DNA of 64,000 bases. Source: an uncultured Bacteroidales bacterium (lineage in GTDB: Bacteria; Bacteroidota; Bacteroidia; Bacteroidales; UBA11471). Below the pieces are notes generated by a model. That model was not told the origin of the DNA and searched no databases. It was given only the letters and a program-made list of their open reading frames with translations. Both the position numbers and the translations under genes were made by a program. Shown piece after piece: positions 38,326 to 63,951 of this stretch (its first letter is position 1; every line of letters begins with the position of its first letter). Location of the stretch: positions 26,555-90,554 of the forward strand of contig CANQQA010000007.1 of NCBI GenBank assembly GCA_947625885.1. Direction: 5' to 3'.

Positions 38326-39063
38326 CTATTCTGCCTTTATATTGTACTTTATGAGCGCATCTTCAATGTGTTTTGATATATCTATACTCATTCTTGTTTT
38401 TGTATTTAAATCAGATAAATTAGAGTAAACGACTACGAGTCCATCTACTGAAGAATTATATGTAACACCAACGCCATAATCAACTTTGGGGTCAGCTATT
38501 TCTCCATAAAAATGAGCAAAAGATTTCGTATTCATATCTCCTTCTAACGTTAAATATCGCTCTGATAAAAAATTTTCCAACGAATAAGCGGCAGATAATT
38601 GGACAATTACACAACTTGACCTCAGTTTCCCGTTTTCAAACATATACCAATAATATGGCGCATTTTCATTACTGCTTTTGTATATTAGATATTCCAAATC
38701 AGAGATATACGGAGTACCATAACGGCTCCTTATCGTTTCCATCGATGCGCCAAAGTCCAAACAGGGTTCTTCATAAAGACTATATTTGGGTATCACTTCT
38801 ACATTGAATGATAGTCCGTGATCAGATTCTCGAACAATCGTTTTTCCCACAAATTGACTTTCAATTACTCCATTTGAAATCATTGCGACAAACTCGTTGT
38901 CAGACGACCAATTAAGATTGCTTACATTCACGCCTTGTATATTCTCGTTTTGAGAATGATACAAGGTGTAGGACATTTTAGATAACGATACATCTTCCTC
39001 GTTTTTGGAACACGACGCCATTGTAACAGCAGTTGCAATAGCCCAAAAGAACATTTTTTTCAT
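38326..39063 (-). CDS. hypothetical lipoprotein (AT-rich), N-terminal Ig-like (Big_2-like) segment
   Basis: Lipobox TMAS-C followed by SKNEED; WSSDNEFVA motif. Confidence 0.78.
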   Translation of the reverse strand: MKKMFFWAIATAVTMASCSKNEEDVSLSKMSYTLYHSQNENIQGVNVSNLNWSSDNEFVAMISNGVIESQFVGKTIVRESDHGLSFNVEVIPKYSLYEEPCLDFGASMETIRSRYGTPYISDLEYLIYKSSNENAPYYWYMFENGKLRSSCVIVQLSAAYSLENFLSERYLTLEGDMNTKSFAHFYGEIADPKVDYGVGVTYNSSVDGLVVVYSNLSDLNTKTRMSIDISKHIEDALIKYNIKAE

Positions 39064-39116: not shown

Positions 39117-39275
39117 CAAAAAACGTGAGTTGGCTCATAGTATCAGAGGTACTGCCATACCCACGCAACATACAAGCACAACCCACGCTATAACATGGGC
39201 GCTTTGTGCTTATTGATCCTTGTTGCGTTTGAAAATTGGCAGTTTTCTGATACAAGTTCAATAGCAAAAACGCTA
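39117..39275 (-). ncRNA. candidate structured 5' leader RNA, copy 1
   Basis: Five nested stems with G-U pairs on the sense strand; lies between a -7 box and the lipoprotein start; homologous to 59801-60055. Confidence 0.65.
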
Positions 39276-39314
39276 TTCTATGTAAAAAGTGTACCACCCT
39301 CCGGCAGTACAGCA

Positions 39315-39322
39315 CAAATATA
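39315..39322 (-). promoter_or_regulatory. -7 promoter box upstream of leader copy 1
   Basis: TATATTTG on minus strand. Confidence 0.6.
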
Positions 39323-59623: not shown

Positions 59624-59727
59624 TTTCTTGCTCAATGGCTTCCCCGCCCGAAGGCTCACTCTCCTTCGGGCGCGATTTTTATTTCCCTAATTTTAAGACG
59701 GGTATTGCAAATTTCAAAAATCGTCGC

Positions 59728-59735
59728 TATCTTTG
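59728..59735 (+). promoter_or_regulatory. -7 promoter box upstream of leader copy 2
   Basis: TATCTTTG, with ATTG 20 nt upstream as a possible -33. Confidence 0.6.
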
Positions 59736-59800
59736 CCCTTGCCGATCGCACCGCAGAAGCCCCGATCGCGGGGTACAGCGGGGCGGGGGCAAAGACATAA

Positions 59801-60055
59801 AAAGCGTTTACTTGACGTTTTGTTCTTGATATACAGAAATTCTCGCAAAATTTCATTTGGAGTCAAGGATAAAGCAACGGTAGATGCCCGTGGATATGTA
59901 ATAGTTTATTTTTTCGACCGCGTATTTCGGGAGAAATGGCGTCGAAACTGTTGCATATATAAGCGTGGGCTTCTGCGTTGCCGTCCAACTCCAAAAGGCA
60001 ATGCGAGAAGCCTCTGTATGAAGGACAGCAACAGGTACAGATTCCTACGCTTTTC
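59801..60055 (+). ncRNA. candidate structured 5' leader RNA, copy 2
   Basis: About 190-nt nested hairpin (59831-60019) with sense-strand G-U pairs; same loop motifs as copy 1 at 39117-39275. Confidence 0.65.
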
Positions 60056-60108
60056 GTTTAATAATAAATCGCCAACGAGGGGATGACCGCGGCAGGAGAA
60101 TACAAAAA

Positions 60109-60405
60109 ATGAACGAAAATTTACAAGCATTAATCCAAAATGTCTGTTCTGGATTTCCTACATACGATGTGGGGGTGAGCAATGTATTCGATCAGCGTAG
60201 ATTTGTTAGAATGGTTCACTATGCATGGAAACATGAAATTGGATTCCATCCAGACATGTTCAAAAACGCCCTAATGAAGACCGACTTATTTCATTCTCTT
60301 TCAGAAAACGAAATCGAAACTAAAGCATCCGAACTTTGTCTACAGGCTGACTTCGCAAAGTCAATGTTCCACGCTGCGTTTGACCTTGAAAATCTTACAA
60401 TCTGA
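60109..60405 (+). CDS. hypothetical protein (98 aa)
   Basis: ATG after an A-rich stretch, protein-like composition, 5 nt before the next gene; no family recognised. Confidence 0.7.
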   Translation: MNENLQALIQNVCSGFPTYDVGVSNVFDQRRFVRMVHYAWKHEIGFHPDMFKNALMKTDLFHSLSENEIETKASELCLQADFAKSMFHAAFDLENLTI

Positions 60406-60410
60406 TAATC

Positions 60411-62669
60411 ATGAAAACAACACTTCAAAAACTTGGGATACTGGCAGCGATGCTGCCGGTATCCCTGTGCGCTTCGGCGTATGACTTCGTGGCAGACGGC
60501 ATTGCCTACAAGATAACATCATTTACAGAGTTCGAATGTTCGGTAGTCGCCAACGACAGCAGCTACCGAGGCGATATTACAATCCCCGAAACCGTCTCTT
60601 TCAACGGCAGAACATTGACCGTCAAATCCATCGGAGACGAAGCCTTTTATCAGGACACAGCTCTGACATCGGTAACGATTCCCGCAACCGTTACAACGAT
60701 AGGGGACTATGTTTTCTGCGAATGCGTCAATCTCCAAACGGTAGCGCTTCCGGACGGTTTAACCGATATAAGCAGCTCCACTTTCTACGGATGTTCTTCG
60801 ATAGAAAGCATCGAACTGCCGGCATCGTTAACGGAAATAGGCGATCTTTGCTTTTCAGATTGTACCGCCCTGTCGAAAATCGAACTGCCGGCGGCAGTAT
60901 CGGAACTTCCATATGGATGTTTTAGCGGCTGTTCCAATCTGAAATATATGAACTTGGCAAACGTTGAAACAATTGGGGATTACGCATTTTCCGGTTGTAC
61001 TAATCTCGCCGAAGTGAAATTCGGGGACAAATTGCACTCTATTGAAAGATACGCCTTTCAGGCGTGCGGATTCGAGGAGTTCACGATTCCGAATAGCGTT
61101 ACTTCGATAGATTCCTATATATTAGAGGGCTGCGATAAATTGCAATCTTTTACACTGGGCAACGGTATTACGGAGATAAATAAGGATAATAATCCGATAT
61201 CCGGTTGTACCAATGTCAAGAAATTCATCATTGCAGACGGATCAGAATCTTTGACGTTTTTTGATGACGCCATATATAGAAGCGCCCCTTTTGAATATGT
61301 GTACATAGGTAGAGATATGGTTTCAAAAACTAAATACGGGATTCCGTGTTATGATCCTCCTTTTTATGATAACACGCATATAAAAACCGTCGAAATCGGG
61401 GAATTTGTAACAGACCTCCCTTGCTCCGGGAATTTTCTATATTATGGATTTTTTGAAAATTGTACCTCGCTCGATTCGATTAAAATTCAGGGTCTGCCAA
61501 CTATTCACTCTGACTTTGCAGCAGGGGACACCGCCCTTAAATACGTAGAAATTTCAAATAAAACGACGAAAATAGATTACAGAGCATTTTCCGGCTGCTC
61601 CTCTCTCGAAACAATCGTATTAAAAGCCCTAACGCCCCCGACTTATTATTACGGTTTCACTTCTGATCTATATCTCAATTGTCGGCTGCTTATTCCCGAA
61701 GGAACAGAGGCATTGTATAAAAATGCTTCGCCGTGGAACAATTTCTGGAATATCGTTGAAAGCCCGGAATGTTTTTCGGAATTTACGGTAGGAGACCTGA
61801 AATACACAATCATTACGGGAAATGAAGTCAGCGTTTCGATAAACGATTCAACCGGAAAACAGAACGTTCAGATTCCCTCGCAAGTCGAATATAATTCAAC
61901 GGTTTACAACGTCGTTTCCATAGCCGGAGAGGGTTTTGCAAATTCGACGGAATTGACGGCTATATCCCTTCCAAGCAGCATTAAGCGAATTGGGGAAAAT
62001 GCTTTTCAGGGGTGCGACAATCTCAATGTCGTCATTTCAAAAAATCCGGAGGCACCGATTACTTTCAAAGAAGTTTTCTCTCCGAATATCTATGAAACGG
62101 CGACCCTGTTTCTTCCCAATGGCAGAGAATCTTCATACGCAGCAGATACATATTGGAGCCTGTTCAAGAATATACGCCAATCGGAACTTGTTCCGATCGA
62201 TTCATTGAAATTCGAGGAGAAAGAACTGGCAATTAATCTGAACGAAAGCAAACAGTTGGTGCCGCATATCTATCCCGACAGCGCGTCCATTCAAAAACTC
62301 AAATGGACTTCTTCCGCCCCCGACATCGTATCGGTGGCAGATGACGGCACTATCGCCTCGAATACCCAAAAAGGCGAAGCGACTATCACGGCAACGACAA
62401 CCGACGGCACCAATATCTCCGACTCCATAATCGTCAAAGTCGGAACGGAAGCCGGTATCGGAGAGGTAATTTCAGAGAATGCAACCATCAGCGTTTCGGC
62501 AGAAAACAATACGATTGTCATAACGGAAAAACTCGCGGAACAAATCGTAAATGTGTACGACATTCAAGGGCGGCTCATCGCCACCACTACCCAAGACGTT
62601 ATAAAAAATCTTTCATCGGGATTTTATATCGTATCTGTCGCCGGTAAAACATTCAAAATTACTATTTAG
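60411..62669 (+). CDS. BspA-like leucine-rich repeat surface protein with Ig-like domain and probable T9SS C-terminal signal
   Basis: Signal peptide (ASA-YDF); LxxVxLPxxLxxIxxxxFxxC repeats; WTSSAPDIVSV (Big_2-like); C-terminal VYDIQGR..GFYIV..KITI. Confidence 0.9.
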   Translation: MKTTLQKLGILAAMLPVSLCASAYDFVADGIAYKITSFTEFECSVVANDSSYRGDITIPETVSFNGRTLTVKSIGDEAFYQDTALTSVTIPATVTTIGDYVFCECVNLQTVALPDGLTDISSSTFYGCSSIESIELPASLTEIGDLCFSDCTALSKIELPAAVSELPYGCFSGCSNLKYMNLANVETIGDYAFSGCTNLAEVKFGDKLHSIERYAFQACGFEEFTIPNSVTSIDSYILEGCDKLQSFTLGNGITEINKDNNPISGCTNVKKFIIADGSESLTFFDDAIYRSAPFEYVYIGRDMVSKTKYGIPCYDPPFYDNTHIKTVEIGEFVTDLPCSGNFLYYGFFENCTSLDSIKIQGLPTIHSDFAAGDTALKYVEISNKTTKIDYRAFSGCSSLETIVLKALTPPTYYYGFTSDLYLNCRLLIPEGTEALYKNASPWNNFWNIVESPECFSEFTVGDLKYTIITGNEVSVSINDSTGKQNVQIPSQVEYNSTVYNVVSIAGEGFANSTELTAISLPSSIKRIGENAFQGCDNLNVVISKNPEAPITFKEVFSPNIYETATLFLPNGRESSYAADTYWSLFKNIRQSELVPIDSLKFEEKELAINLNESKQLVPHIYPDSASIQKLKWTSSAPDIVSVADDGTIASNTQKGEATITATTTDGTNISDSIIVKVGTEAGIGEVISENATISVSAENNTIVITEKLAEQIVNVYDIQGRLIATTTQDVIKNLSSGFYIVSVAGKTFKITI

Positions 62670-63175: not shown

Positions 63176-63562
63176 TCAGAGCCGGCTTTTTACCCACTGC
63201 CGCAGGGCGCTTGTGCGGGTGAGCAGCTCTTTGCAGTAGTTCGGGGTAAGCGCTTTTATAAGACGTTCTCGGTCAGAAGGGTTGAGAACGACCCTATTCA
63301 ACGGTTCGAGTTCGTCGATGAAATCGATCTGGTCTTCCGAAAATTCGATGATAATACCCGTCTCGCCGGCAAGCTGACCCAAGTGGCGGACCTCCGAAAG
63401 CGGTTCTTCCAGCACATTGCACCAATAGGCTTTCAGTATCGCCTCGATGGTGCGGTGGCACATCAGCCCGATATACATATATCGCTGCGCCGAAAACAAG
63501 GCGCGCGCCGTATCGAAATCATAATCCGACAACTCCACCCAACCGACAGCTTTTTCTCTCAT
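63176..63562 (-). CDS. HEPN domain protein (divergent)
   Basis: W..LSDYDFDTA..L....RY.Y..LMCH..IE..LKA pattern; own -7 box TATATTTG at 63586-63593. Confidence 0.8.
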   Translation of the reverse strand: MREKAVGWVELSDYDFDTARALFSAQRYMYIGLMCHRTIEAILKAYWCNVLEEPLSEVRHLGQLAGETGIIIEFSEDQIDFIDELEPLNRVVLNPSDRERLIKALTPNYCKELLTRTSALRQWVKSRL

Positions 63563-63630
63563 AACTCTTTCCCGTTTTGTTTCTGCAAATATAAACAATT
63601 CTATTGATTAACAAACTTTGATATCACCCG

Positions 63631-63951
63631 TTATTTCTTTTTAGACGCTCTTTCGCGCGGTACCATATTCATATCCTGCAAAGCCCTACCGAGTGCATCG
63701 TCTTTTGCCAAAGAGAGAATATCATCATCGAGTTGCAGCGCATACAGCACCCGCAGATAGATACCGATAGCAACTGTCGGGGCGCCTTTCTCTATGCGCG
63801 AAACCGTGAGCGGCGAACAGGTGGCTCGCTCTGCCACCTGCGCGATACTCAAATTACGACGCAACCGGGCAAACTTTATTTGCTCGCCAACAACCTGCAT
63901 TTTCTGCTCCAATTTTCGTGGTAACTTAGTACCCATCGTACCCTTTGTCAT
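63631..63951 (-). CDS. XRE-family HTH regulator (HipB-like antitoxin)
   Basis: GEQIKFARLRRNLSIAQVAERA..S..TVSRIEKG; -7 box TATCTTTG at 63976-63983. Confidence 0.88.
   Translation of the reverse strand: MTKGTMGTKLPRKLEQKMQVVGEQIKFARLRRNLSIAQVAERATCSPLTVSRIEKGAPTVAIGIYLRVLYALQLDDDILSLAKDDALGRALQDMNMVPRERASKKK

Follow-up and report, generated by a model that had tools for sequence, protein, structure and literature searches.

A family of putative two-state leader RNAs from Bacteroidales, missing from Rfam 15, with a covarying contact between its two halves

The window, a 64,000-nucleotide stretch of an uncultured Bacteroidales genome, holds two copies of a leader RNA in which the upstream half of the transcript (D1) is complementary to the downstream half (D2) through a loop-loop helix, L1:L2, and two flanking helices. 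These three helices show the strongest covariation in the family and are its main feature, one that a first-pass annotation of the window overlooked. Fold predictions and comparison of homologues make us fairly confident that the leader acts as a two-state transcription attenuator. The fuller proposal of a self-addressed attenuator, in which the D2 of a locus would repress the next transcript of that same locus in trans, is more tentative, and we would put its probability just short of even.

Results

Architecture of the two leaders

The segment GCGTGGG is called B here; the stretch complementary to it upstream is A, and the complementary one downstream, ahead of the U tract, is C. S1 stands for the AGCGT at the 5′ end. 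Promoter boxes were assigned with TAnnTTTG, which we take to be the Bacteroidota −7 promoter consensus; transcription of copy 2 would be expected to start near 59740. Copy 2 and the genes that follow it have these features:

59728..59735 (+), −7 promoter box TATCTTTG, from sequence and the motif consensus
59740..59791 (+), 5′ hairpin, which differs between subfamilies (shuffle z = −3.8)
59803..59892 (+), upstream half D1, S1 through segment A (growing-chain fold)
59803-59807 (+), S1 (AGCGT), 5′ end of D1
59831..59837 (+), Pa (ATACAGA), partner of Pa′ at 60013-60019
59838-59839 (+), near-invariant AA linker directly 3′ of Pa
59840..59847 (+), loop L1 (TTCTCGCA), complement of L2
59856..59863 (+), Pc (TTTGGAGT), partner of Pc′ at 59988-59995
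59880-59892 (+), segment A, 3′ end of D1
59894..59957 (+), spacer hairpin from A to B (fold)
59961..59969 (+), segment B (AAGCGTGGG), partner of A or C
59988..60019 (+), D2 recognition region (covariation)
59988-59995 and 59997-59999 (+), Pc′ and GGC of D2 (covariation)
60000-60009 (+), loop L2 AATGCGAGAA, its loop code TGCGAGAA complementary to TTCTCGCA
60010-60012 and 60013-60019 (+), GCC and Pa′ of D2 (covariation)
60044..60059 (+), segment C (CCTACGC) and U-rich tract, predicted terminator end (sequence)
60109..60405 (+), first gene after copy 2, 98-aa protein
60411..62669 (+), BspA-type leucine-rich-repeat protein with an Ig-like domain

The 98-aa protein has neither a Pfam nor a PHROG family, and a match of the BspA-type protein to a type IX secretion tail is weak and below cut-off. 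Upstream, at 59645-59672 (+), a separate terminator-like hairpin follows a polysaccharide-biosynthesis gene and would insulate the copy 2 promoter; just past the BspA-type gene, at 63176-63951 (−), an HTH gene and then a HEPN-domain gene form a toxin-antitoxin-like pair.

Copy 1 lies on the reverse strand:

39315..39322 (−), −7 promoter box TATATTTG
39291..39310 (−), 5′ hairpin (fold)
39194..39274 (−), D1 (fold)
39274-39270 (−), S1 (AGCGT)
39253-39246 (−), Pa GTATCAGA
39245-39244 (−), AA linker
39243-39237 (−), L1 ACTGCCA, complement of L2 TGGCAGT
39227-39222 (−), Pc CGCAAC
39205-39194 (−), segment A
39179..39189 (−), segment B
39140..39169 (−), D2 recognition region
39169-39164 (−), Pc′ GTTGCG
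39161-39159 and 39150-39148 (−), GGT and ACC, 3-bp hairpin stem
39158-39151 (−), L2 ATGGCAGT
39147-39140 (−), Pa′ TCTGATAC
39117..39132 (−), segment C and U tract
38326..39063 (−), first gene after copy 1, 245-aa protein

The spacer between A and B measures 4 nt in copy 1 and more than 100 nt in some homologues. Judged by eye from its N-terminus, the 245-aa protein carries a lipoprotein-like signal; it too has no Pfam family and no PHROG family.

Two exclusive partners of segment B

Fold prediction gives B two partners: A upstream, which yields a read-through rod, and C downstream, which together with the U tract yields a terminator-like structure. Mutually exclusive pairing of this kind had been proposed in the first-pass annotation, and the complementarities on which it was based are real. 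In copy 2, AAGCGTGGG (59961-59969) pairs with CCTACGCTT (60044-60052) over nine positions, one of them G-U, and in copy 1, AGCGTGGGTTG (39189-39179) pairs with CAACTCACGTT (39132-39122) over eleven, two of them G-U. Pairing of AAGCGTGGG with CCCGTG (59887-59892; six pairs, two G-U) is likewise present, but it had been called local and is so only if the spacer hairpin is folded, CCCGTG lying about 70 nt upstream of AAGCGTGGG on the other side of that hairpin. Relative to shuffled sequences, the downstream halves of the two window copies fold with z = −4.2 and −3.9 and the upstream stretches with z = −6.0 and −3.3.

When folding was followed on a growing chain, a check that the annotation had itself suggested, D1 was closed by S1:A until B appeared, and the rod then formed, with B, Pc′, L2 and Pa′ pairing back into D1. 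The predicted order is thus closed D1 and then the A:B rod, and the competition between S1 and C that had been envisaged did not appear. The AGCGT is indeed found at the 5′ end of both copies (59803-59807 and 39274-39270), but the folds pair it with A, closing D1, rather than with the terminator strand. The same conclusion, that S1 does not compete for C, follows from a comparison of 66 representatives (<72% identity, selected for having an L1 match), since the outer rod pairing between the D1 5′ arm and the D2 3′ arm beyond Pa is copy-specific in only 4 of them. The D1 stem is copy-specific in 29 of the 66 and the D2 stem in 23; for pairing within the D1 tip the count is 7, and within the D2 loop 0.

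Position +4 of B indicates that both exclusive pairings are kept. It is A instead of G in 9 of 248 parsed rows (rows not de-duplicated), and in these nine the partner in C is T in seven and the partner in A is T in eight; because A and C both follow the change, the proposed conservation of the alternative pairing holds across homologues. In alignment A3 (38 sequences) A:B is 99.1% paired, but B varies so little that formal covariation falls short of significance, 40 of 500 shuffles reaching the observed value.

The two states are far apart in predicted energy. Imposing B:C raises the energy by 8.7 kcal/mol in both window copies, and the rod lies below the B:C state in 63 of the 66 representatives, with a median gap of 10.8 kcal/mol. 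Folding in cis is therefore predicted to favour the read-through rod by about 9-11 kcal/mol, and with a lead of about 11 kcal/mol the conserved terminator would need an outside trigger. At least six T are found among the 8 nt after C in 50 of 66 representatives, the first three T being forced by the search pattern. The B:C helix surrounds a large internal loop, which is unusual in intrinsic terminators, and a consensus terminator scan did not call it. Taken as models, these folds support the two-state terminator/antiterminator architecture that had been suggested.

The sense strand folds better for the D2 stem in 64 of 66 representatives and for the inner rod in 63, which points to an RNA rather than a DNA cruciform. 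Open reading frames occur in 58 of the 66 leaders, compared with 59 ± 2.5 after shuffling, and range from 2 to 231 codons; no conserved leader peptide was found among them, and with ORFs at the shuffle level a trp-type leader-peptide attenuator was rejected.

Contigs from RNA libraries match the copy 2 region: X1 at 59781-59902 with no difference, X2 at 59818-60044 with two differences, and X3 at 60110-60279. The genes after both copies are mostly uncovered in the X1 and X2 contigs, which proves nothing, since the strains differ, the contigs carry neither ends nor strand, and DNA is possibly present.

Recognition between D1 and D2

Within D2 lies a 3-bp hairpin, GGY-loop-RCC; its loop, L2, is the complement of the D1 tip loop, L1. 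L1:L2 forms an 8-bp loop-loop helix, and Pa:Pa′ and Pc:Pc′ flank it. The pattern matches listed numbered 240, of which 191 were unique and 186 had 200 nt upstream. L1:L2 is a fair test here because the search pattern left the loop and the upstream DNA free: among the matches listed, a perfect upstream complement of L2 of at least 7 nt occurs in 56 of 60 Bacteroidota-titled genome matches, against 10 of 306 swapped loop-type pairs and 3 of 59 downstream stretches. Among the matches listed with other titles, 3 of 20 have an upstream complement of L2. The 66 representatives were chosen by their L1 match, so their L1:L2 column counts are not independent evidence.

The flanking helices are even more telling of the copy. 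After two loci (L141 and L218) had been excluded as non-family, Pa paired better with its own partner than with 95% of foreign ones in 64 of 66 representatives, and Pc did so in 57 of 66. In fixed register, Pa:Pa′ gives 410 Watson-Crick pairs of 462 in the 66 representatives (149 ± 10 after shuffling) and 314 of 336 in 48 later loci (123 ± 9). On alignment A3 a pair count gives 97.1% paired and 153 two-sided changes, against 38 ± 7 expected from shuffling and a value reached by none of 500 shuffles, and RNAalifold recovers the rod helices unaided.

The small D2 hairpin covaries as well (65 of 66), its types being GGT/ACC in 40 representatives, GGC/GCC in 25 and GGT/GCC in 1. The linker before L1 is A in 63-64 of 66 at each position, with fixed spacing. 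We infer that a compact pseudoknot is likely, with L1:L2 stacked on GGY:RCC and Pa. The family contains about 50 loop types, and the commonest L2 core, TTGGCG, is found in 77 of 135 members among the matches listed. A U-turn (YUNR) in L2 was considered as a rule and rejected: it fits 48 of 66 sequences, yet just 28 of 50 loop types.

Divergence of the address and predicted action in trans

The three recognition helices, about 24 nt in all, can be regarded as an address. Among 15 close paralogues from three related genomes, divergence within a genome is 0.50 for Pa, 0.47 for Pa′, 0.37 for Pc and 0.24 for Pc′, whereas promoter-upstream DNA reaches 0.19, the 3′ UTR 0.08, the stems 0.00-0.06 and the spacer 0.01; these fast-diverging helices stay paired in the 15. 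The background segments are under multiple constraints, so that the fast change of the address could in part reflect low constraint.

The 24-nt address is identical in 2 of 389 same-genome pairs from 17 genomes, and the median pair has 12 differences; these genomes are related to one another, and their pairs are not independent. Two reverse-strand shadows were removed before this count, and several regions of G019, G025 and G031 were left unparsed. Collapse of identical copies in draft assemblies could hide such pairs; it could not create the excess of divergence. The two address-sharing pairs are a tandem pair in G016 and, in the genome of the window (G000), the pair G000 C1:49757 / C18:6190. 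In the latter (G000:C1:49757-49843, −, L329, and G000:C18:6190-6276, +, L330) the D2 sequences are identical and the downstream genes homologous. L329 is a natural address mismatch, its D1 having no matching L1 (5/8) or Pa (1/7), and on the mechanism proposed below, constitutive termination would be expected there.

The same few alleles of Pa and Pc are found in various combinations, and chimeras are present, which suggests recombination between copies. Beside these, G000:C1:138-219 (+) is a decayed copy whose L1 suits the loop of the C18 copy better than its own L2, and is probably a recombinant of two subfamilies; L254 (G025:C322) has an intact D2 and no recognisable D1 upstream (best L1 match 6/8).

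Own D1:D2 pairing beats that with every co-resident paralogue in 55 of 55 copies. We estimated action in trans by a rough energy sum, in which a free D2 binds the leader and forces B:C, and which ignores kinetics, concentration, pseudoknot energies and steric limits. With the own D2 the predicted median is +0.6 kcal/mol, and termination is favoured in 17 of 40 copies, the own D2 failing to tip the predicted balance in the other 23; with the D2 of a paralogue the median is +18.8 kcal/mol and the effect is favourable in 0 of 278 combinations. The two window copies acting on their own leaders give −7.4 and −6.2 kcal/mol. Cross-talk between them through the shared core, which the first-pass annotation had thought possible, is unlikely by this estimate, since a paralogue D2 never cancels the lead of the rod (0/278): the loop codes differ (TGCGAGAA and TGGCAGT), and the predicted values for the two in trans are +15 and +22 kcal/mol.

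Distribution and gene context

Motif and profile searches found at least 10 clear copies in the genome of the window, and a covariance model of the downstream half recovered these 10 at E < 1e-5 along with three weaker matches. A strict pattern of that half occurs in 43 of 301 genomes of the order, the reversed pattern giving 5 matches, and has at least 120 matches in viral contigs and at least 120 in species genomes. Of 41 relatives, 19 have a match to the covariance model, and one genome (G025) has as many as 32. Record titles among the matches listed are mostly Bacteroidales, with some other Bacteroidota. Two loci with Firmicutes titles (L142, L178) have a leader of the copy 2 type with an intact address, through mis-binning or cross-phylum transfer.

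Rfam 15, which includes C4 (RF01695), gave no match in the window at the gathering score, chance-level matches only for both copies at E up to 10, and none for 20 homologue loci at E ≤ 0.5; three leaders compared by BLAST with GenBank phages and PLSDB plasmids gave no match either. In the literature searched we found no description of the family, parts of which large supplements may list. The motif strings are absent from the searched supplements of PMC8040213, PMC10690425 and PMC7366714, other files of which may hold parts.

Of 64 homologues, 53 have a −7 box 45-200 nt upstream of L1 (against 13 for the opposite strand), and in 40 of 46 the start of a same-strand ORF is no more than 100 nt from C. 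Judged from these positions, the leader sits between a putative promoter and a same-strand gene, as attenuator leaders do. By a crude rule, 34 of 137 first downstream proteins are lipobox-like and 59 signal-like, so that the first genes would be mostly exported. Pfam assigned the first proteins of 64 loci to BspA-type LRR, restriction-type nuclease, NusG-family and capsule-export families, with many unknowns. Phage antirepressor or replication genes were absent from these 64 (Pfam) and from 11 viral-contig proteins (PHROGs).

In several contigs of G025 (L251-L256, L331-L350), G019 (L352) and G016 (L351) two leaders lie 1.3-3 kb from each other, as though each gene of an array in turn had its own. 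One subfamily lies directly before NusG-family genes in three loci (L051, L137 and L206; Pfam match for L051 and L137). These genes are presumably UpxY-like, and here the leader may gate a capsule antiterminator. A restriction-type nuclease gene (HSDR_N or Mrr_N) follows the leader in many viral contigs (L001, L004 and related) and at L006 and L169, and in a Chryseobacterium-titled record (L133) the leader lies between a divergent tyrosine-recombinase-like gene and a gene for a superinfection-immunity protein.

Discussion

A mechanism can be proposed in four steps. First, D1 is predicted to fold as a long hairpin presenting L1. Second, B, Pc′, L2 and Pa′ would invade D1 from its unpaired A end to give the rod, made up of A:B, Pc:Pc′, L1:L2 and Pa:Pa′, with GGY:RCC and the AA linker likely forming a small pseudoknot; the covariation behind this step is observed, and the folding order and the pseudoknot are our reading of it. 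With B held in the rod it would be unavailable to C, and polymerase would therefore read through. Third, were the tip of D1 already occupied, D1 would stay shut, leaving B to pair with C ahead of the U tract and so end transcription. Fourth, the occupier may be D2 RNA (median 76 nt from B to C) cut from earlier transcripts of the same locus. A cell newly receiving such a cassette would then show a burst of expression followed by self-repression, each cassette being insulated by its address. A processing step must be assumed, because an uncut terminated leader should refold into the rod and so neutralise itself.

Copy-specific covariation is equally expected from a purely intramolecular contact, and it is this that sustains the alternative of an attenuator working in cis alone, which we regard as rather unlikely. 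Here the D1:D2 pseudoknot would time folding or offer a platform to a protein, the choice between rod and terminator would fall to polymerase speed, pausing or a host RNA-binding factor, and addresses would diverge because helices need no particular sequence, or to avoid accidental mispairing. Intramolecular pairing does explain all of the covariation, the invariant letters (GG/CC, the AA linker and GCGTGGG/CCACGC) could form a protein site, and no processing signal was identified. Set against this, the address helices outpace promoter-upstream DNA and the 3′ UTR even though each change needs two substitutions, the 75 upstream ORFs include no recurrent regulator, and a rod lead of about 11 kcal/mol is large for a kinetic toss-up.

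The rod is also a long inverted repeat, which exists in many copies (up to 32 matches in G025) with shuffled Pa/Pc alleles and chimeras, and it could be argued that there is no switch at all. The element would then be a degenerate repeat, either DNA of the MITE/REPIN kind or a stabiliser of the RNA, that travels with promoter-plus-gene cassettes while template switching or gene conversion maintains the match between its arms. We consider this improbable. The leader has one fixed orientation relative to promoter and gene, the asymmetry of G-U pairs favours the sense strand, and covariation is separate for the D1 stem (29 of 66) and the D2 stem (23 of 66); the AA linker, the 10-nt loop and GGY:RCC, all of them bulges, are kept across distant lineages, and template switching would erase them. 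No shared recombinase or transposase recurs in the 75 upstream ORFs, where neighbours are unrelated and such a gene is found at just 3 of 75 loci.

Still less probable is a ligand-binding riboswitch with the L1:L2 / GGY:RCC pseudoknot as its aptamer: the core is compact, conserved and fixed in spacing upstream of a terminator-like platform, but it has few invariant unpaired nucleotides, its hypervariable helices are unexpected in an aptamer, and the genes downstream (surface proteins, restriction-type nucleases, NusG-family, capsule export) are unrelated. The least probable of these alternatives, and very unlikely, is an opposite-strand antisense RNA as trigger, as in IncI/IncB plasmids or pT181, which would make the address match automatic and to which opposite-strand −7 boxes in 14 of 65 homologues (7.5 ± 2.4 after shuffling; 7 of the 14 lie 36-46 nt past C) and a loop core common to Inc RNA targets might point, since 51 of 65 have no such box, the boxes share no family-wide position, the A-rich start region can generate the motif, and the fold is strand-asymmetric.

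If the self-addressed attenuator is taken one step further, the Bacteroidota would hold a natural library of mutually orthogonal attenuators, each leader emitting a small RNA that acts on its own nascent transcript only through a three-helix address of about 24 nt, with diversity selected for and reshuffled by recombination; we advance this speculatively and would sooner bet against it than for it. Were it true, addresses would act like incompatibility groups, dozens of surface-protein and defence cassettes per cell would regulate themselves without a protein regulator, and an incoming cassette with a new address would escape silencing. It would explain how gut Bacteroidales control many acquired surface, secreted and restriction-type genes without a dedicated regulator, and would carry the immunity logic of C4, CI and Inc-type RNAs from phage and plasmid control onto ordinary accessory genes. 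The roughly 50 loop types supply natural sequence-programmable attenuator variants, the scarcity of which is named as a roadblock in PMC3753616. Even if the leader acts in cis only, the family is absent from Rfam 15 and covaries unusually strongly, and the covariation gives the exact mutations and compensations by which the mechanism can be tested directly.

Comparison with known systems

The working mode of the family would be most like IncI/IncB control. In IncI-alpha ColIb-P9 and IncB pMU720, a loop pairing in cis (GGCG with CGCC) activates, and an RNA acting in trans on the same loop blocks (PMC4705826); the likeness lies in long-range loop pairing in cis and in UUGGCG, a loop core of IncB/IncI antisense systems (PMC3753616, PMC4705826) and the commonest L2 core here. 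The plasmids control translation of rep, through an antisense RNA encoded on the opposite strand, and depend on a leader peptide. The leader family appears to act on termination, has no conserved leader ORF, shows opposite-strand −7 boxes at no common position, comprises about 50 loop types, and has no plasmid rep gene downstream and no plasmid match for the three leaders compared.

The pT181 system, in which a kissing contact on the nascent leader decides termination and specificity needs bases of both loop and upper stem (PMC3753616), and CopA-CopT, in which kissing proceeds to a four-way junction (PMC10798244), use an antisense RNA from the opposite strand of the plasmid, while here both partners lie on one strand in one leader. 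Kissing complexes are hard to extend beyond about 6-8 bp (PMC10798244), a limit that weighs against the predicted binding of D2 in trans, for which steric limits were ignored in the energy sum.

In the FopS RNAs, paralogous sRNAs of Bacteroides thetaiotaomicron, we find another multicopy Bacteroidales RNA family ending in a terminator. PMC11697453 describes them as having a single-stranded R1 seed and a simple terminator, as mostly intergenic and as present in Rfam. Identity with FopS was rejected on architecture, not sequence: our leader has two interlocking halves, a leader position and no Rfam match.

The logic of C4 and CI RNAs, which the first-pass annotation had invoked, is recognisable in that one stretch of a leader recognises another stretch within it; effector and target regions lie together and the specificity loops covary, as in C4 and P4 CI. 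The C4 effector is about 77 nt long, its variable loops set specificity, and a 4-nt change separates P1 from P7 (PMC5320573); D2 is of similar size (median 76 nt) to P1/P7 C4 (RF01695) and its multicopy Acinetobacter relatives. C4 RNA, which RNase P releases, carries three stem-loops and acts by blocking a ribosome-binding site, whereas D2 has one small hairpin in a large internal loop; PMC2864571 lists C4 for Proteobacteria and phages. P4 CI RNA causes premature termination by pairing with flanking sequences, and in P4 CI and Gifsy-1 IsrK an RNA processed from, or terminated in, the leader acts in trans on its own locus (PMC4825925). The likeness to P4 CI (seqA/seqB/seqC) and IsrK is a leader-derived RNA acting on its own locus, which in our family is proposed; the differences are that the family has no Rfam match and no phage replication or antirepressor genes downstream, that its putative effector is the terminator hairpin itself, and that the target would lie upstream only.

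These comparisons place the family outside IncI/IncB, C4/P4 CI and FopS, each of which departs from it in at least one tested feature. Our best reading, still a tentative one, is of a self-addressed RNA attenuator, missing from Rfam 15, that resembles the pseudoknot-versus-antisense control of IncI/IncB plasmids on the one hand and P4 CI on the other.
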